This document shows, piece after piece, positions 11,498 to 20,065 of a DNA stretch of 64,000 nt; position 1 is the stretch's first letter; every line of letters begins with the position of its first letter. Under the pieces are notes generated by a model. It ran no database searches and was not told the origin of the DNA. It saw only the letters and a list, made by a program, of their open reading frames with translations. The DNA is taken from the NCBI GenBank assembly GCA_965204575.1, contig OZ241993.1, positions 1,280,001 to 1,344,000 of the forward strand, given 5' to 3'. Made by a program: the position numbers and the translations under genes. Source of the stretch: an uncultured candidatus Porisulfidus sp. (GTDB lineage: Bacteria; Pseudomonadota; Gammaproteobacteria; Poriferisulfidales; Poriferisulfidaceae).

Positions 11498-12454
11498 TCA
11501 GGCCGGTTCGGCGTCGGCCTGGGCATCGAGCCGCATCCGCCCCAGGGCGAGACGCAATTCACCGAACGTCTGTGTCGGGATGATTCGGGTATCGTCGATC
11601 ACCGCCTCGAAAAGATTCAGGTTGGAGCCGTGCAGGAGGATCGGGTGGCCTTCCGGCACGGCACGGCGAAGTTTGCGTAACTCATTCGGAAGCAAAGGAT
11701 CATCGATCGGGTAGGCAGCGATGGCGGTGCACAGGGCCCGGCTGCGTTCCGCTGCGTACGCGATCTCGTCAGCAGACAGCCCCGCTCCAAGGAAGATCGG
11801 CCGCCACCCGTAGGCTCGGGTCGCCACGGCCAAGCGAAGCAGCGGCAGTTCATCGGGTCCGGACAATCCGCCGGCCACGACCACGCGGAAGGCGGAACCG
11901 GTTCCCGGGCGGGTGGCATAGTTCAGCAAGTGGCTGCGGATTACGCCTTCGGCCATGTGCTTCTGCGCCATGCGCAAGGTTCCATTGCGGCATTCGTCTT
12001 GCATGTGCTGGATCAGCGGCGCGATCAGGTCTTCTTGCATGAACAACTCGACCAGGTTCTTCTCGGCGTCACTCAGGGTTTCGGCCAGCTGTTCCGGATT
12101 CATCCTGTCGATTGCCTCGAGGCACCGGTCGAAATATTCCATGACCGCGTCCGTGCGCGGGCGCGAGGAACCGAGGGAAGGCACCAGAACGGCCGCCTGC
12201 TCATCTCCTTCCACCATGGCCTGGAGTTCGGCAGTGGACGCTCGCGCGATGTCGCCGATACGCCGCCCGGCATCGGTGGCACGGGCCAGCAGGCGCAGGC
12301 GCTCGATGTCCTCGTCTCGGTACAATCGGCGCTGATTTCGGGTGCGCGCCGGTTCGACTGCGTGGTAACGGCGCTCCCAGGCGCGGATCAACTCGACGCT
12401 CAGGCCCGAGCGGCGCGCGGCGACCTGGATGGGATGGAGCGGCGATTCGGCCAT
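11498..12454 (-). CDS. MerR family regulator with B12-binding-like domains (CarH/LitR-like)
   Basis: N-terminal MerR HTH (IRAWERRY..V.P.RT...RLY), then a four-helix bundle and a Rossmann-like domain (GWRPIFLGAGL). Confidence 0.82.
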   Translation of the reverse strand: MAESPLHPIQVAARRSGLSVELIRAWERRYHAVEPARTRNQRRLYRDEDIERLRLLARATDAGRRIGDIARASTAELQAMVEGDEQAAVLVPSLGSSRPRTDAVMEYFDRCLEAIDRMNPEQLAETLSDAEKNLVELFMQEDLIAPLIQHMQDECRNGTLRMAQKHMAEGVIRSHLLNYATRPGTGSAFRVVVAGGLSGPDELPLLRLAVATRAYGWRPIFLGAGLSADEIAYAAERSRALCTAIAAYPIDDPLLPNELRKLRRAVPEGHPILLHGSNLNLFEAVIDDTRIIPTQTFGELRLALGRMRLDAQADAEPA

Positions 12455-12622
12455 GTCAAGTTATCCACCTTTTGTACAGGAAAATCCGGGGCAATCCGGT
12501 GTTTCGTACAGCCATTGTACTGGATGCCCTCCTGTCGGCCAACCGGAGGTTGGGATATTTGTGATAGATTAGCCTCAAAAGAATCGTGTCCCCACGATTG
12601 TCAGAATTACTTAGGAGGAGTC

Positions 12623-13765
12623 GTGAAAAAACTGTTTATCAATCTACGCTATTTCCTCGCGCCGCTGCTGATCCTGTCGGCACTGTTCGGGGTTTTGGCA
12701 GGCGGACCGTGGGTCTGGGTCGGAGTCGCCCTGATGGGCGTCGGCATCCTGGTCGATACCACTACGCCACAACGCACCATGGGCGCGGGATTTGACGAAG
12801 AGGGTAACACCTATGGCGTCCCCGCTCTTCAGAACGGTGTCATGTACAGCATGCTGGGCGTTTTTGTCCTGTTGCAGCTGGCCATCTGCTGGCGCATCTA
12901 CCAGTACGTGAATGGCGTCCCGATGGGGACCGGCACTTTCCTGGGCCTGTCCTACCAGGAAGGAATCACCGGGATGGAGTTGGTCGGGGCAGTCGTTTCG
13001 ACCGGCATCTTCGCCGGCATCGGCATCATCTACGGGCACGAGCTGGCGCACACCAAGGGTTTCAGTTTCGTGATCGCCCGCTGGATGATGGGACTGTCTG
13101 GTTCGTCCCATTTCTGCTACGCGCATGTGTACAACCACCATCTGGAATTGGGTTGCGAGGACGATCCCGCAACTTCGCCGCGCGGGCGCAGCCTGTATGC
13201 TCATTTCCCGAAATCCTATTTCGGCCAGAGCAAATTCCTGTATTCGATGGAGAAGCATCGCCTGGAACGTCTGGGCGTGCCGTTCCTGTCTTGGCAGAAC
13301 CGCTGGATTCGTGGCTATGCCATGAGCTTGCCGACGCTCTTCCTGTTCTGGATGGCGGGCGGCTGGCTCGGCATCTGCGCCATGCTGCTGATCTGGATGA
13401 TCTCGAACTTCGAGCTGGAAGCGCTCAACTATCTGGAGCACTATGGGCTGATTCGCGAGAAAGGCCAGCCCATCGACTATCGCCATAGCTGGGACAACAG
13501 CACGGCGTTCACCAGCTGGTTCTTCATTGAGATCGGCCGTCAGGCGGATCACCACGACCGCGGTGAAACCCACTTCTGGGAGCTCGACGAGGTCGGGGCG
13601 CCGAATACGGGAATGGGGTATTTCACCCTGTTCGCATTGGCGTTGGTTCCGCCGGTGTTCCACAAACTCATGGAAATAGAGTTGAAGAAGTGGGACGACA
13701 ACGAAGCCTCCGAAGGCGAGTTGGAAGTCTCCCGCGCGATCAACAAGGTTGCAGGCTACGCATAA
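12623..13765 (+). CDS. Membrane diiron monooxygenase/desaturase, AlkB/XylM family
   Basis: His boxes HELAH, AHVYNHH, NYLEHYG, QADHH; strong RBS AGGAGGAG before GTG 12623. Confidence 0.88.
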   Translation: MKKLFINLRYFLAPLLILSALFGVLAGGPWVWVGVALMGVGILVDTTTPQRTMGAGFDEEGNTYGVPALQNGVMYSMLGVFVLLQLAICWRIYQYVNGVPMGTGTFLGLSYQEGITGMELVGAVVSTGIFAGIGIIYGHELAHTKGFSFVIARWMMGLSGSSHFCYAHVYNHHLELGCEDDPATSPRGRSLYAHFPKSYFGQSKFLYSMEKHRLERLGVPFLSWQNRWIRGYAMSLPTLFLFWMAGGWLGICAMLLIWMISNFELEALNYLEHYGLIREKGQPIDYRHSWDNSTAFTSWFFIEIGRQADHHDRGETHFWELDEVGAPNTGMGYFTLFALALVPPVFHKLMEIELKKWDDNEASEGELEVSRAINKVAGYA

Positions 13766-13853: not shown

Positions 13854-14552
13854 ATGAGTGAATTCGGGCAAACCCGCCGGCTGGAAGACCGATTGATCGA
13901 CGATGTCGCGGCCGCAGGGCAGTCGGCACAGCAGCAGCGTCGGTTGACGCTGGAGAAAGAGTTGCGCCGCCCGGACCTCAAGGATTCGGAACGTCTTGAC
14001 GCACAACTGGAACTCTCTGGGATTCTGCTTGATCTCGGCGAGTCCGGGACGGCTTTCGCGATGGCCCGGGAGGTACTGGACGCGGGGATTCGGGCGGAAC
14101 GCTACGAAAGGGCGGCCTCGGCCTGCCGGGTCATGTACCTGAGCGAGCAGCCGGAGTCCACGTCGGCCCTGGGACACGGCCTTTGGCTCGCGCTGGCTTG
14201 CCCGATGGATCTGGATCTGACTTGGCAACTGTTCCGCCATTTGGTAGAGGAGACTCCGGCTCATTCCGATGGCGCGGCCGTGGCTGCGATGCTGGCTTAT
14301 TTCTTGATGGACAAGCGGGCAGCCGGCGCGGAACGCGATCGTCTAATCTTCCTGGCCCAGCAGCAAGTTGCGGAAGTGGCTGAACGCCACCGCGGCATTA
14401 CCAACGATGAGACAATCGGAGTCTGGGTGCAGATGCACGACCTGGACGACGTGGATGTGTTGCTGGAACGGATGGGACGCATCCTCGACGCAATCACGCC
14501 GGACTGGTGGTTCGACCGGGAGGCGGTGCGCGCCCGGTTCGCTTCCGACTGA
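13854..14552 (+). CDS. Hypothetical all-helical protein
   Basis: 232-aa ORF with host-like codon usage; no motif recognised. Confidence 0.7.
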   Translation: MSEFGQTRRLEDRLIDDVAAAGQSAQQQRRLTLEKELRRPDLKDSERLDAQLELSGILLDLGESGTAFAMAREVLDAGIRAERYERAASACRVMYLSEQPESTSALGHGLWLALACPMDLDLTWQLFRHLVEETPAHSDGAAVAAMLAYFLMDKRAAGAERDRLIFLAQQQVAEVAERHRGITNDETIGVWVQMHDLDDVDVLLERMGRILDAITPDWWFDREAVRARFASD

Positions 14553-14571
14553 TTCCAACCGGTACGGGGTC

Positions 14572-15663
14572 ATGGCATCCGCTGACGATCCTTATGCACG
14601 CCGTATCATCCATATCGACATGGATGCGTTCTATGCGGCGGTCGAGATGCGCGAGGACCCTTCGCTACGAGGTCGCCCCCTGGTCGTCGGCGGTGATCCG
14701 GAACGGCGGGGCACGGTGGCGACATGCAATTACGAGGCCCGAGCCTATGGCATTCACTCGGCAATGGCGAGCCGGACCGCCAAGAAACGATGCCCGGAAG
14801 TCATCTTCATCCGCCCGCGGTTCGACCTGTACCGTGCAGTGTCGGCCGAAATACGTGAAATCTTCCTCCATTACACTCCCAAGGTCGAGCCCTTGTCCCT
14901 GGACGAAGCCTACCTTGACGTGACCGGTTGCCGCCTGTTCGGTGGAATTGCTACTGACATTGCACGCGATATCAAGCGTCGCATCCTGGAGAAAACCCGG
15001 TTGACCGGTTCGGCCGGCGTCTCCTACAACAAGTTCCTGGCCAAAATCGCTTCGGACATGAACAAGCCGGACGGTTTGACCGTGGTGCGCCCGGAGGGTG
15101 GCCCAAAGCTGGTGGCCCGCCTGCCGATCCGAAAGTTCTTCGGGATCGGGCCGGTCACGGCAGCGCGAATGAAGGAATTGGGAATCGAAACCGGAACCGA
15201 TCTCAGGCAGTGGCCGCTGGAACGACTCCAGCCTTTGTTCGGGAAGCATGCCGAGTACTACTACCAGGCGGCGAGGGGGTTGGATTTTCGCGAAGTGGAA
15301 CCGGGTCGTCCTCGAAAGTCGGTAGGCTCGGAGACGACGTTCGTGCAGGATATTCAGGATTTGGAGGAAATGCTGAAGGCGCTCAAGTTGCGGGCGCGCG
15401 AGGTGGCGCTGGATCTGCAGGAAAAGCGGTTAACCGGGAAGACAGTTACGGTGAAAGTCAAGTTCAGCAATTTTACGCAGGTCACCCGGAGCCATTCGTT
15501 CGATCGGCCATTGACTTCGTATCGACAGATGGCAGATGTCCTGCCGGATTTGTTGCGCCGGGCCGCACAACCGGGTCACGCAGTGCGCCTGCTCGGGGTG
15601 ACGGTTTCGAACTTGGTTCCGCATTCCGATGAAGAAGGGCCGGTGCAGCGTAGCCTTTTGTAG
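14572..15663 (+). CDS. dinB: DNA polymerase IV
   Basis: IIHIDMDAFYAAVE, NYEARAYGIHSAM, SLDEAYLD, KFLAKIASD. Confidence 0.96.
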   Translation: MASADDPYARRIIHIDMDAFYAAVEMREDPSLRGRPLVVGGDPERRGTVATCNYEARAYGIHSAMASRTAKKRCPEVIFIRPRFDLYRAVSAEIREIFLHYTPKVEPLSLDEAYLDVTGCRLFGGIATDIARDIKRRILEKTRLTGSAGVSYNKFLAKIASDMNKPDGLTVVRPEGGPKLVARLPIRKFFGIGPVTAARMKELGIETGTDLRQWPLERLQPLFGKHAEYYYQAARGLDFREVEPGRPRKSVGSETTFVQDIQDLEEMLKALKLRAREVALDLQEKRLTGKTVTVKVKFSNFTQVTRSHSFDRPLTSYRQMADVLPDLLRRAAQPGHAVRLLGVTVSNLVPHSDEEGPVQRSLL

Positions 15664-15736
15664 GGGCGTATATGGAAGTTGAGAGTTGAGGGTTTTCACG
15701 GCTCTGTTGTGGAAATCCGTGCTAGAGTAAATCACC

Positions 15737-18160
15737 ATGCACCGAGCCTTCCGCTTGAGTCAAGTCAGGCCAGGCTTGGCAGGGTCATGCGCGATCGCAG
15801 AATTTAAAAGCAAGCGGACAAGAAAGGACGCGAGCAACAGAATGCCACCACGCGAAACCCCACGGCCTGGAATACTGAAAAAAGTCACAGCGGCTGATCT
15901 TGGTTTTGTCGAACTCCCGGCACTAACGCCGCATCTTGAATTCCGCCTCATTGAAGAAGGGCAGGTGCTGTTGGTTTCCGAAACCTTCAATACATTGCTC
16001 CGCGAAAAGGTTCACACGGACCTCTTGCCGCTCCTCGACGGACACCATTCGCATCATGACATTGCCGAGACCCTGGCCGGAGCGTATTCGGAATCCGAAA
16101 TTCAAACCGCCATTGCTTCTTTGGTCGCGAGAGGGTATGTCGTTTCCGGCAACCACCTCATGGAACGAGGGCAAGCAGCATTCTGGTCCTCGCTGGGTGT
16201 CTCTCCCCGATGGGCCGAGGGGCGTTTGGCGGCGGCGAAAGTGGAAGTTGCCGGCGATGATGACCAGCTCGCTCGCAGGCTAGATGCTCTGGGCATAGCC
16301 GTGGGCACCGACCATCCGGCTCTTTCGGTCATTGTTTGCGAGGATTATCTCGACGATCAGCATGCCGGGATCAATCAACGCCACCTTGCGTCCGGCGAGC
16401 CGTGGATGTTGGCGCAACCGAAAGGCATTCGGCCTTTATTCGGCCCGGTATTCCGGCCCTCGGAGCAAGGCCCATGCTGGGCCTGCCTGACCTATCGCAT
16501 GCGCGGCCATCAAGAGGTCCATAATTTCCTGCGCAACCTTGCTGGAGAGGATGCGGCTTTTTCGCCTTTTGCCGCTGAATCCTCCGTCCTGGATTCGGTG
16601 TATGGACTGATTGCTGTCGAGATCGCCAAGTGGGTGGTGCTTGAGGAAATGGCTCCCCTCCATGAACAGGCGATTTCGTTCGACACTGCTCGCCTGAGCA
16701 GCGAATACCATCCGGTCATGCGCCGGCCTCAGTGTTTCGCATGCGGGGAGGAGGCGCTCTATCGCGCGGACCGGCCGCCCGTTCCGGTGCAGCTGCGATC
16801 AAGCCCGAAAAACATATGTAACAGTGGAGGGGCGCGTTCGGTTTCTCCAGAAGAGACTCTTGCCCGATATCGCCATCTGGTCAGTCCGGTCAGTGGGGTC
16901 GTTTCATGGGTCACGCGAATCACGGATGAAACAGACCCTTGGTTGCATGTACATTGGGCGGGGAGCAATTTCGCGCTGCAAAGCATGAAATTGAGTTCAT
17001 TGCGGCGCAGTTTGCGGAGCAAGAGCGCGGGCAAGGGCAGCACGCCGAAGCAATCCGAGGCAAGCGCTCTCTGTGAGGCGGTCGAACGCTACTGCGGTGC
17101 CTTTCACGGAGATGAGATTTGCTGTCAAAGGCGGTTCTCGGAGTTTTCTCAGGCTGGGGAATCAGAAGCGGTCCACCCGAACGATGTCCAGTTGTTCAGC
17201 GATTGGCAACTGGATCATGCTGAGGAAATTGATGCCGAGGGTCACCCCTGCAATGTTGTTCCATCGCGTTTCGACCCCGGTGCGAAGCTTGGTTGGTCGC
17301 CGGTATGGTCGCTGACCGAGGGCCGGCACCGATACCTGCCGACATCAATGCTCTACAGCATGCCCAGTGAACATCAAGAGCGTTCGGGGCTTAAAGCGGA
17401 TTCGAACGGGTGCGCCGCCGGGAACACCCTGGAAGAAGCCATCTTGCAGGGATTTTTCGAACTGGTTGAACGCGATGCTTTTGCCATTTGGTGGTACAAC
17501 CGGCTGCATTTGCCTGGAGTAAACCTGGAGAGTTTCAATGATGACTACTTGGCGTGCGCGTGTGACCGCTATCGAGACTTTCATCGCGAGTTGTGGGTGC
17601 TGGACGTGACCAACGATCTTGGCATTCCCGTCTTCGTCGCCGTCTCCCGCAGAATCGACAAGGATGAGGAAGATATCATCTATGCGGCCGGGGCGCATAC
17701 AGACCCGCACATTGCTGCTCTACGCGCGGTGTGTGAGTTGAATCAATTTCTGAACTTGATCCAGGGAAGGAGACAGGCCTCCGCAAGTGTGGCAGTCAAT
17801 GACCCGACATGCCGCTGGTGGTGGAAGAATGCAAGGCTGGCGGACCATTCCTACCTCGCGCCAGCTTCCGCCGTCAAGCCAAAGGGGAAGGCGGATTATT
17901 CCGTTCCCGACACCACGGACATAAAAGAGGATGTGGAGCAATGCCGTGCGGTGGTCGAATCCAAAGGCATGGAGTTCTTGGTGCTCGATCAGACACGACC
18001 CGATATCGGGATGTCCGTGGTGCGGGTCATTGTGCCTGGCCTGCGCCACTTTTGGCCACGTTATGCCCCAGGGCGCTTGTTCGAAGTGCCGGTTGGGATG
18101 AAATGGCGTGAGAACCCGATTACGGAAGCGGAAGTCAACCCCGCCCCGGTCATTGTCTGA
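15737..18160 (+). CDS. Fused TOMM leader-binding/E1-like-YcaO cyclodehydratase (start may be ATG 15842)
   Basis: N-terminal RRE-like region, GPCWACL and RRPQCFACG, YcaO motifs SAGKG, CEAVER, SNGCAAG, ELVERD; Pro-rich C-terminus NPAPVIV. Confidence 0.92.
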   Translation: MHRAFRLSQVRPGLAGSCAIAEFKSKRTRKDASNRMPPRETPRPGILKKVTAADLGFVELPALTPHLEFRLIEEGQVLLVSETFNTLLREKVHTDLLPLLDGHHSHHDIAETLAGAYSESEIQTAIASLVARGYVVSGNHLMERGQAAFWSSLGVSPRWAEGRLAAAKVEVAGDDDQLARRLDALGIAVGTDHPALSVIVCEDYLDDQHAGINQRHLASGEPWMLAQPKGIRPLFGPVFRPSEQGPCWACLTYRMRGHQEVHNFLRNLAGEDAAFSPFAAESSVLDSVYGLIAVEIAKWVVLEEMAPLHEQAISFDTARLSSEYHPVMRRPQCFACGEEALYRADRPPVPVQLRSSPKNICNSGGARSVSPEETLARYRHLVSPVSGVVSWVTRITDETDPWLHVHWAGSNFALQSMKLSSLRRSLRSKSAGKGSTPKQSEASALCEAVERYCGAFHGDEICCQRRFSEFSQAGESEAVHPNDVQLFSDWQLDHAEEIDAEGHPCNVVPSRFDPGAKLGWSPVWSLTEGRHRYLPTSMLYSMPSEHQERSGLKADSNGCAAGNTLEEAILQGFFELVERDAFAIWWYNRLHLPGVNLESFNDDYLACACDRYRDFHRELWVLDVTNDLGIPVFVAVSRRIDKDEEDIIYAAGAHTDPHIAALRAVCELNQFLNLIQGRRQASASVAVNDPTCRWWWKNARLADHSYLAPASAVKPKGKADYSVPDTTDIKEDVEQCRAVVESKGMEFLVLDQTRPDIGMSVVRVIVPGLRHFWPRYAPGRLFEVPVGMKWRENPITEAEVNPAPVIV

Positions 18161-18618
18161 TCTGTCGATATTGACGTCATAAAAACAATACCGGGCTACC
18201 GAAGGGGACCTTCATCAAGAGCAGGCTCCACGGGATGATTTCCTGAGCGGCTTCAGAAGCCGTTCGCTACCCCAGTTGATTGGTGATCCGGGTCGGGAAG
18301 GAATCCTGAGGCGCGTTAGCGGGCTTCCCATCACCATGGCGGCACGGTTTAGCTGGGCGGAATCCCCGGCACCAGCAATGTCCTGCTGGGGTCAAACCAC
18401 TCACAAAGACAGAGGCTCGGGCGCCAGTGGCCGACTTCCAGAACGGGAAGCGCATCTGGATATTGATTTATTTTTCGGGGTGATTTTTTTATGCGAAAGC
18501 CTGAAGTGCCACCACATTAACCATAGATGGCGCAGAGAGATTACTTTCTGCGCCATTAAGTATGTGTTCCACCGAAGAGCTTGAAACTAACTGAACACCC
18601 CTAAGCAGTCGAGTTTAA

Positions 18619-18894
18619 TTACGTGCAGAAAAGAACCCCTGCAGCAATCATCTCCAACTGTTCCTCGCTCAGTTCGGGACCGGCTGGCAATGACAGATGA
18701 AATGTGTTTGCATCGTTTTGATGCACCACGATTGTCAAACTTTCTGGCAATTCCACACCGAACTCGTCAGCAATCACAGTTTTCGGGTCGGAGATGAGTT
18801 GCTGGCGAAAGCCAGCATCCTCTATTGCGCGATCTGTTAAATGCTGACGCATTTGATCAGCCCTTTCGGCTATTGCTTCGTACAACTCTTCCAT
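18619..18894 (-). CDS. NHLP (nitrile hydratase-like leader) RiPP precursor, predicted core VLFCT
   Basis: RAIEDAGFRQQLISDPK...FGVELP...LSLP...ELSEEQLEMIAAG leader; RBS GAGGGA upstream of ATG 18894. Confidence 0.9.
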   Translation of the reverse strand: MEELYEAIAERADQMRQHLTDRAIEDAGFRQQLISDPKTVIADEFGVELPESLTIVVHQNDANTFHLSLPAGPELSEEQLEMIAAGVLFCT

Positions 18895-19071
18895 ATTGAT
18901 TCCCTCGCTAGTTGTAATCCACATGCATGTGGGTTGATTCAAGTATAGCAAGACTTGTAGGGAACTCGTTCGAATGTGCGGGTTCATGTGCACGTGCTAG
19001 ACCCGTCCCGATATGCGTCTCTATGTTAGACTTGCGGCAATCATTTTCCAGAGGTTTTTCCTTTCCTCAAG

Positions 19072-19998
19072 ATGCCTGATCGCCTGACCCTAGCTGCGCT
19101 CATCGCGTTGTTGCTCGTCCTGTTGGCGGGCTCCATTTCCGTCTCCCAAAGACCGGCACCGTTTTCGGAAGGTGTCTTTTGGCAGGTGAGCAAGGACGGC
19201 GAGATCGTCGGGCACATTCTCGGCACCATCCACAGCAATGACGAACGCGTCACGCGGATTCCGGAACGGGTCATGGACGTGTTTACGAAATCATCAGCCT
19301 ATGCCATTGAGGCGTTTCCCGGGAGTGAACTGTGGAACCCCTACCATGGGCTTCAGAATATTCGTGGCCGCATGATGCTGCCGGGCAAGCAGACACTTGC
19401 GGAGGTCGCCGGTGAGGAACTGGCGAAGAAGGTGTATACGATTCTCAAGAGCAATTACGTCGATGAGGAATTTGCACGCCGCGTAAAACCGTGGGCCGCG
19501 ATCCACAGTCTCGCCATTAAGTCAGAGCACCAAGGACCGATCGTGGATCAGAAGCTCCTGGACCTGGCGGTGCTGCAGGACAAGGAGTTGTATCAAATCG
19601 AGAGTCCGGAAGAGTTGCTGGCTGCGTTCTATGCAATGCCGATGGATTCGCAGGTCTCGTTGCTGAAAGACAAGTTGCGGGCCTTTCCAGAGATGCGCAA
19701 TACCATGGAAGACATCGTTCTGGCCTACGGGCGCGAAGACCTGCAGGCCATGATGGACCTGTCGACGGACTTTATTGACAAGGACCCGGACAAACGGAAA
19801 CATTATGAGATGTATGTCAAGCATGCCATCGATATTCGAAGCATTGTGATGACGCACTACATGGGCGCAGCGTTTCGCGAGGGCAATGCGTTCATTGCCG
19901 TCGGGGCCTTGCATTTGTATGGAAAGAACGGAGTGCTGGCGTTGCTTGGCCAAGAATTCTACGGCCAATACGAAGTGGAACGAATCCTGATCAAGTAA
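19072..19998 (+). CDS. TraB/GumN family protein
   Basis: N-terminal signal/TM, HILGTIH, and AFIAVGALHLYGKNGVLALL C-terminal motif. Confidence 0.85.
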   Translation: MPDRLTLAALIALLLVLLAGSISVSQRPAPFSEGVFWQVSKDGEIVGHILGTIHSNDERVTRIPERVMDVFTKSSAYAIEAFPGSELWNPYHGLQNIRGRMMLPGKQTLAEVAGEELAKKVYTILKSNYVDEEFARRVKPWAAIHSLAIKSEHQGPIVDQKLLDLAVLQDKELYQIESPEELLAAFYAMPMDSQVSLLKDKLRAFPEMRNTMEDIVLAYGREDLQAMMDLSTDFIDKDPDKRKHYEMYVKHAIDIRSIVMTHYMGAAFREGNAFIAVGALHLYGKNGVLALLGQEFYGQYEVERILIK

Positions 19999-20065
19999 CC
20001 CGCCTGGCCCCGCTGCCGCGGAACAAGCCGGTCTCCATTACACGTTCGGTGACGGGGTGCTTCCC

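Follow-up and report, generated by a model that had tools for sequence, protein, structure and literature searches.

An srp-type proteusin locus of a Candidatus Porisulfidus sponge symbiont, very probably reduced by deletion to a YcaO enzyme and a single-cysteine precursor

How did two genes of a ribosomally synthesized, post-translationally modified peptide (RiPP) pathway come to stand without the usual partner genes, and can they still yield a product? These questions are raised by a locus within a stretch of 64,000 nucleotides (hereafter the window) of the genome of an uncultured Candidatus Porisulfidus sp. (assembly GCA_965204575.1, contig OZ241993.1, positions 1,280,001 to 1,344,000). The locus is composed of a gene for a fused YcaO cyclodehydratase (15842..18160, + strand; 772 aa) and a gene for an NHLP (proteusin) precursor of 91 aa (18619..18894, - strand), in which an 86-aa leader is followed by the five-residue core VLFCT; the two genes are convergent, with 458 bp between them. 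An earlier note, made from the sequence alone, had taken the pair for a minimal two-gene RiPP system yielding a tiny thiazoline peptide. The host is a sponge symbiont (of the 12 runs listed as containing all or part of the stretch, none of them an RNA run, 6 are labelled sponge metagenome), and the locus is a member of the srp (sponge-derived RiPP proteusin) family already described in the literature. That its two-gene state was derived by deletion from an srp island, making it a deletion-reduced srp locus, is very probable. The fuller statement, that this reduced locus probably still forms one thiazoline at Cys90, without dedicated maturation or export, seems to us the likelier account, with appreciable room for others.

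The site occupied by the pair is bounded on the left by a gene for a DinB-type DNA polymerase IV (14368..15663, +; Pfam IMS domains), which lies outside the cluster, and on the right by a conserved core gene for a TraB/PrgY/GumN-family protein (19072..19998, +; PF01963). The same dinB-traB site holds in congeners an island of ~18 kb with about 10-11 cluster genes (synteny was compared with genomes G001, G011, G009 and G008). Read in the orientation of the window, the G001 island encodes a flavin adenine dinucleotide (FAD)-binding oxidase, an 824-aa fatty-acid-desaturase fusion, an MMPL transporter, the YcaO enzyme, a 369-aa protein, an S-adenosylmethionine (SAM) methyltransferase, the precursor, an HlyD-like protein, a C39-peptidase ABC exporter and a 974-aa ABC protein, after which traB follows; a flavin halogenase-like gene is also found in some congener clusters. 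These islands (G001, G011, G009, G008 and others) share with the window the same relative gene orientation, and their YcaO enzymes and precursors are 73-83% and 62-78% identical, respectively, to those of the window. They differ in gene number and in their cores (LSCCL, LSCCV or LCCCL), whereas the window has two genes, a pseudogene stub and VLFCT.

A blastn comparison of the window with the G001 locus (L049) returned four collinear blocks, namely the end of dinB, YcaO and the 180 bp after it, the precursor together with its flanking DNA, and traB. The three gaps between them were assigned from this collinearity and the genes of L049. In the first (15665..15827), 163 bp of the window stand in place of ~6.9 kb carrying the genes for the FAD-binding oxidase, the desaturase fusion and the MMPL transporter. 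The second (18345..18494; 150 bp) corresponds to ~2.1 kb comprising the last 310 codons of the gene for the 369-aa, prenyltransferase-like protein and the SAM methyltransferase gene, and the third (18951..19068; 118 bp) to ~6.4 kb encoding the HlyD-like adaptor, the C39-peptidase ABC exporter and the second ABC protein. Together the gaps amount to ~15 kb, and the deletions would have taken away about nine neighbouring genes; the window keeps two genes and a stub in 3.3 kb. The stub (18183..18344, +) was recognized by tblastn as ~54 codons corresponding to residues ~5-58 of the 369-aa protein and 59% identical to the copy in G001 (a search of 3.5 kb gave E 1.3e-17). It has no start codon, a stop codon being found at the expected start, and the similarity ceases after ...ITMAA. 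No remnants of the other lost genes were detected above noise in the 3.5-kb region. The related strain X8 has an additional 59-bp deletion within the stub (18307-18367). The full clusters of the congeners, the three gaps and the stub speak against the proposal that the pair is a minimal two-gene system as designed. A 102-codon, TTG-initiated open reading frame (ORF) at 18276-18584 (+) is the stub frame running on into the deletion scar, probably as a side effect of the deletion with no meaning of its own. The G+C content across the locus (0.58 at 16001-18000 and 0.53 at 18001-20000) is lower than in most of the window (0.55-0.68).

The absence of partner genes next to the pair extends to the whole genome (1.82 Mb, single contig, 98.75% complete), as follows from the genome-wide profile counts: one NHLP match, one YcaO match, and no match to either the SagB-type dehydrogenase model TIGR03605 or Peptidase_C39 (PF03412). 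The earlier note had reported no oxidase, halogenase or C39 transporter nearby, and had asked for a genome-wide count of NHLP precursors, SagB and C39; the observation holds and these counts answer the question. Its suggestion that tailoring genes elsewhere may act in trans fared otherwise, since a tblastn search of the entire genome with 12 cluster proteins recovered only the stub and unrelated paralogues (MMPL 40%, generic ABC ATPases), and tailoring, peptidase or exporter genes acting in trans were rejected on these grounds. In these searches the HlyD and C39-ABC proteins of the cluster had no genome homologue except generic ABC ATPases (22-34% identity), and the halogenase-like proteins of congeners G009 and G005 found only a 25%-identical flavoprotein.

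The precursor, read from ATG 18894 and preceded at a distance of 7 nt by GAGGGA, matches the leader_NHLP model TIGR03793 (65.3 bits; cut-off 50.9) and, partially, the nitrile-hydratase-like family PF02979; its srp-type assignment also rests on family alignments. At its C terminus the protein reads ...ELSEEQLEMIAAG-VLFCT-stop, the leader end before the VLFCT core being ...PELSEEQLEMIAAG. The L(X)4L motif of the leader is LSEEQL (residues 75-80), and the leader closes with Ala-Gly. Residues E77, E78, Q79, L80 and E81 are at least 95% conserved in 68 precursors from outside the FC clade, by which we mean the Porisulfidus sub-clade with Phe-Cys cores (e.g. VLFCT, VFFCT, AIFCT), and they are invariant in 11/11 precursors of that clade. 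The core contains a single Cys (Cys90), a Phe at the position of a Cys in relatives, and no Trp.

Very short cores are the rule in this family. All 19 database homologues of the precursor stop 3-6 residues past the leader (cores VLFCT, AIFCT, VLFCCT, IYFCI, VFFCM, LSCCL/V/I, LCCCV, LCCCGI and RCCC), and a family precursor is present in 12 of 15 congeneric genomes (LSCCL, LSCCV, LCCCL, LCCCT, LCCC, LSCCC, LSCCI, LCCCW, LTCCGC). A scan of one genome per species gave 113 related stretches; 80 of these were retained, and the first 62 loci were read by regular expression. A core of 3-7 residues follows the leader in 59 of them, the other three giving no regular-expression match; 58 of these cores (among them LCCCW, LCCCGI, RCCC and LSCCG) have at least one Cys, and CC or CCC occurs in 57. 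The scanned loci come from sponge-associated metagenome-assembled genomes labelled Alpha- and Gammaproteobacteria, Nitrospirales, Binatia, Thermodesulfobacteriota and others; five further loci on metagenome contigs of the Joint Genome Institute (JGI) included none of the FC type. With the 19/19 homologues and 59/62 loci ending at the same place, and with the DNA past the stop codon having its homologue in non-coding 3' flanking sequence of relatives, it is scarcely credible that VLFCT arose by nonsense or frameshift mutation of a longer core, and we rejected this explanation. The truncation by a nonsense mutation that the earlier note had raised as an objection to its own reading was not seen, all homologous precursors being short-cored. 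The 3' flank of the gene (18495-18618), which aligns with that of the G001 precursor, holds a stable hairpin (18527..18556, -; 63 nt past the stop codon), possibly a terminator or stabiliser; the RNA fold of 18480-18625 (-) has an energy of -38.8 kcal/mol (z -2.75), and the hairpin region has no match in Rfam.

The YcaO enzyme lies in an open frame of 807 codons (15737-18160, +) and matches YcaO PF02624 (E 6.5e-97), PF21084 (an N-terminal winged helix), TIGR03604 (SagD-type; 266.5 bits, the cut-off being 219.25) and TIGR03882 (an E1-like domain that binds leaders; 134.8 bits, with a cut-off of 36.9). These Pfam and NCBIfam matches identify it as a SrpC-like fusion of a winged helix-turn-helix/RiPP recognition element (RRE), an E1-like part and a YcaO domain. 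Translation more likely starts at ATG 15842 (772 aa) than at ATG 15737, because (i) the alignment of the 807-aa ORF with relatives begins only at residue ~27-51, (ii) each of its nearest homologues in the database has a length of 772 aa, and (iii) strains X5 and X8 carry a 1-base, frameshifting insertion at 15823, within the putative N-terminal extension. The latter indel suggests that the 35-codon upstream extension of the frame (15737-15841) is probably untranslated. A weak sigma-70-like site is present at 15776-15803; the promoter/terminator scan gave one promoter-like site, with 2.0 expected, and is uninformative. The enzyme shows 61-64% full-length identity to the YcaO proteins encoded beside LCCCW precursors in six of the seven LCCCW sponge-symbiont loci searched (the sequence of the seventh, L122, ends ~1.2 kb past the precursor), its likeness to SrpC being drawn through these proteins and not through the SrpC sequence itself. 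The earlier description of a complete E1-YcaO fusion, convergent with an NHLP precursor ending in VLFCT, is borne out by the profile matches and ORFs, and its placement among srp-type NHLP/YcaO systems with very short cores by these identities and the family alignments.

In the published srp system, the three Cys of the SrpE core LCCCW are converted to thiazolines by the YcaO enzyme SrpC and the terminal Trp is brominated by SrpI (PMC10858898, PMC10286304), a Trp-6 brominase (PMC10858898, PMC10286304, bioRxiv 10.1101/2023.06.09.544420); the role of the L-x-E-E-Q-L leader motif has been described (PMC10858898). The locus of the window resembles srp clusters in its NHLP leader with an xLxEEQL motif and Ala-Gly end, its Cys-containing C-terminal core of 4-6 residues, its fused RRE/E1-like/YcaO enzyme, its sponge-symbiont host and the lack of an azoline dehydrogenase, which in these clusters leaves thiazolines and not thiazoles. 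It differs in that srp cores have two or three Cys, whereas the VLFCT core has one, with Phe replacing a Cys, and has no Trp. An SrpI-type brominase is likewise missing from the window. The brominase is not universal in the family, given that only 66 of 343 sponge precursors are co-located with a halogenase (bioRxiv 10.1101/2023.06.09.544420). Further differences are the missing C39-ABC/HlyD exporter (no PF03412 genome-wide) and the lack of intact genes for the prenyltransferase-like protein, the methyltransferase, the desaturase, the oxidase and the MMPL transporter. The Mpr system of a methanotroph (precursors MprE1-10, YcaO enzyme MprC, flavin mononucleotide (FMN) oxidase MprD; PMC12455567) is similar in that the YcaO enzyme's RRE domain binds an NHLP leader via L(X)4L and helix alpha-1 and Cys is preferred for azoline formation. 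It has an azoline oxidase, and its cores are longer, with multiple heterocycles. According to the same source, a single engineered Cys gives -18 Da in this system, and MprC rejects the SrpE leader. Systems of the thiazole/oxazole-modified microcin (TOMM) and linear azol(in)e-containing peptide (LAP) type differ in their SagB-type FMN dehydrogenase, TIGR03605 having no match in the window genome.

From these homologies the following course can be proposed. The ancestral dinB-traB island of ~18 kb would have lost ~15 kb in three deletions, leaving a SrpC-like YcaO enzyme and a SrpE-like precursor. By analogy with SrpC/SrpE and MprC/MprE, the N-terminal winged-helix/E1-like part of the enzyme would bind the folded NHLP leader via LSEEQL, and the YcaO domain, using ATP, would cyclodehydrate the core Cys90 to a thiazoline; Thr91 is an unlikely second site. 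As the genome has no oxidase, no thiazole would be formed and the thiazoline would stay, and in the absence of a C39 peptidase/exporter and of the other tailoring genes, no maturation or secretion by the normal route of the family is expected. The modified peptide would then stay in the cell as a thiazoline-tailed protein of 91 residues, or else the pair may be in the last stage before loss.

Whether the surviving pair is still constrained was assessed from substitutions in the FC clade. All seven distinct FC-clade YcaO proteins are 772 aa long, and only 2 of their 62 variable positions fall in the 242 columns (31%) that are at least 97% conserved, such columns being defined across 117-120 family YcaO proteins. 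Leaving out the window branch, 1 of 48 such positions falls in a conserved column (binomial p 4e-7), and in full-cluster clades the corresponding counts of variable positions are 8/179 and 8/325. Pairwise dN/dS (the ratio of non-synonymous to synonymous substitution rates) of the YcaO gene between the window and G011, G001 and G009 is 0.10-0.12, and that of the flanking traB gene is 0.06-0.09; in a three-taxon split the value is ~0.14 for the window branch vs 0.09-0.10 for G011 and G001. The window protein itself retains 239 of 245 family columns that are at least 97% conserved. The 11 distinct FC-clade precursors show no change in the LSEEQL motif or at the penultimate Cys, and their core (0.40 differences per site, vs 0.13 in the leader) holds the pattern x-x-F-C-x over six variants. 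The pattern of substitutions indicates that both genes have been mostly under purifying selection through their history, with a modest relaxation on the window branch. The dinB-YcaO-stub-precursor layout, with YcaO in frame, was also found in the metagenomes of two other studies, in one as a single 4116-nt contig (~97% identical) and in the other as a contig set (~93% identical, with a range of ~91-97%); being common to both, the first two deletions predate that divergence. The third junction is common to the window and to the strain of run X4 (record 12 of X4 bridges 18768-19244). Strains X5 and X8 lack it: their precursor and traB contigs leave the window sequence between 18975 and 18987, those of X5 continuing for at least 3.3 kb beyond the divergence, so the exporter deletion may be private to the window lineage. 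Against an intact exporter in other FC-clade strains, no C39-ABC protein of at least 407 aa is recorded for the contigs of 115,383, 39,141, 28,132 and 25,610 nt carrying FC-clade YcaO genes, and no close full-length YcaO was found on contigs with VLFCCT, IYFCI and VFFCM precursors; in these comparisons proteins were paired with contigs indirectly, by nucleotide size, and for one cluster 15 of 30 members were listed.

Several observations weigh against a locus that is still at work. The strain of run X4, ~99% identical to the window, joins 17405 to 18217, an 811-bp deletion that removes the last third of YcaO, and 18641 to 18768, where 126 bp are lost in frame and the precursor leader is shortened by 42 residues; the product is a 59-aa database protein (P0019, on a 1064-nt contig). 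With both genes thus affected, the locus is evidently dispensable and breaking down in the immediate lineage of the window. The island is wholly absent from 3 of the 15 congeners (G004, G007 and G010), which have no srp genes and in which dinB directly adjoins traB. The YcaO enzyme of the window departs from the family at 6 of the 245 highly conserved columns (median 1, maximum 8), and six or more such departures occur in only 3 of 117 other family members. The window branch alone has 14 derived changes, one of them at a conserved column (p 0.08), a sample that cannot separate constraint from neutrality. The Ala-Gly leader end, found in 68/68 precursors outside the FC clade, is GG or SR in 3 of 11 within it, and FC-clade leader changes at conserved columns (3/31) are not significantly depleted (p 0.13).

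Most of these points would be expected if the pair were a non-functional relic, made purposeless by the loss of exporter, peptidase and tailoring genes and not yet disabled in the window strain. This explanation, to which we give a clearly smaller but substantial chance, accounts for the large X4 deletions and the excess of substitutions at conserved YcaO columns. It also agrees with the absence of any remaining peptidase or exporter gene, a window-branch dN/dS raised ~1.4-1.5-fold and a precursor dN ~10-fold that of the sister branches in the three-taxon split, the congeners without the island, and a small genome consistent with ongoing reduction. It is set against two intact ORFs, a window-branch dN/dS still far below 1, FC-clade substitutions that shun conserved YcaO columns as strongly as those of intact clusters, and a core pattern kept over all its variants; moreover, the three deletions spared both genes, the region upstream of the precursor and its 3' hairpin. 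On this evidence we put the pair's being still catalytically active in the window strain at slightly better than even. The end product of the pair might be the whole folded 91-residue proteusin with a C-terminal thiazoline, repurposed as a small intracellular protein. We regard this as unlikely, together with the two suppositions that go with it at the same low strength: that the FC clade kept only the YcaO enzyme and the precursor under purifying selection, the window strain having no leader peptidase or exporter, and that the thiazoline tail serves, e.g., for metal or partner binding. The loosening of the Ala-Gly site within the FC clade agrees with an end product that is left uncleaved, and is to be expected after loss of the double-glycine peptidase.

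A tiny thiazoline peptide, possibly a signal or metal ligand, was the product put forward in the earlier note; set free as five residues by a peptidase encoded elsewhere, it would make the pair a self-sufficient minimal RiPP system. The intact Ala-Gly leader end of the window copy and the conserved hydrophobic core pattern would suit such a peptide, and the LahT150 peptidase can release the modified LCCCW core of other srp systems in vitro (PMC10286304). There is no Peptidase_C39, however, in this nearly complete genome and no homologue of HlyD or C39-ABC beyond the ABC ATPases described above, and the two-gene state is itself derived by deletion. Nor can the neighbouring TraB/PrgY/GumN-family protein serve as the protease of the cluster: at 70-94% identity it keeps its position whether a congener has the full cluster or none, adjoining DinB in the latter case, and it was rejected in this role as a conserved flank gene. 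We thus consider a free pentapeptide improbable. Of the proposed product, the thiazoline stands as the chemistry expected at a single Cys, while the released signal or ligand has no visible route out of its leader. A reduced srp locus that probably still forms one thiazoline remains the account we prefer.

The 369-aa protein of which the stub is a remnant is a regular component of srp loci, with ORF matches in ~50 of the 62 scanned loci (L066-L127), sometimes in two copies; examples in the congeneric islands are L049:9464-10639 (-), L054:9010-10119 (-) and L053:8709-9818 (+). It has no match in Pfam and no sequence match in PDB. An AlphaFold2 model of the full-length protein, built from 29 aligned sequences, is of high confidence (pLDDT 92.4, pTM 0.90), and the Foldseek matches listed are all ABBA prenyltransferases (PagF, LimF, DMATS, CloQ, NphB and AmbP; E 2e-6 to 1e-4, TM 0.4-0.54). 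From the model, the protein is probably a peptide prenyltransferase with an ABBA fold. It is like the cyanobactin peptide prenyltransferases PagF and LimF in the predicted ABBA barrel, without detectable sequence similarity to Pfam or PDB entries, and the window holds only 54 codons of its gene. Judged by gene content, then, the lineage of the window has lost the prenyltransferase-like protein, the methyltransferase, the redox enzymes and both export systems.

Several observations were made on other genes and precursors of the family. The desaturase fusion of the islands (L049:15724-18198 (-) and its homologues in L050-L057; 816-853 aa) has a PF00487 desaturase/AlkB-like domain, continues into a long C-terminal region that weakly hits a GlnE-like nucleotidyltransferase, and is 26-29% identical to the alkB-like gene product of the window (11930-13765). 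Congener G013 (L057, L058, L059) has three YcaO paralogues, the orthologous one lying >1 Mb from the dinB-traB site, which holds an LCCCL precursor with two ORFs of very great length (1279 and 1142 aa) next to it. In G011, whose main precursor has the core LSCCL, a second precursor with an LCCCW core is encoded on a 1.9-kb contig (G011:C112; L026:630-881) and may come from another organism in the bin. The NHLP leader model finds 63 matches in the congener G006 (1.9 Mb) and 28 in each of G026 and G038, two genomes from a related genus. The cores of these precursors are long, diverse and often Gly/Ser/Cys-rich (e.g. L031, L037, L042, L048, L032, L033, L039), so that precursors have expanded in a prochlorosin-like manner within genomes of very small size.

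The locus shows the known srp family in a new, pared-down form whose Phe-Cys core, with its single Cys, is unusual; it is not a new kind of minimal pathway. Clusters of this family rank with the most widespread RiPP loci of sponge microbiomes and with those most highly transcribed; in four sponge specimens, the precursors were the top-transcribed genes of their RiPP clusters (bioRxiv 10.1101/2023.06.09.544420). With its single Cys and a single expected -18 Da, the VLFCT precursor is a simple substrate, of natural origin, for work on SrpC-type enzymes, which are hard to handle, and the model of the lost 369-aa protein lends added support to a predicted ABBA prenyltransferase fold for a conserved, unnamed srp gene. 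The dinB-traB site presents a natural deletion series, from the full cluster through YcaO plus precursor and broken genes to the empty site, which shows the parts that are dispensable in a genome-reduced symbiont, the YcaO-precursor pair being the last to go.

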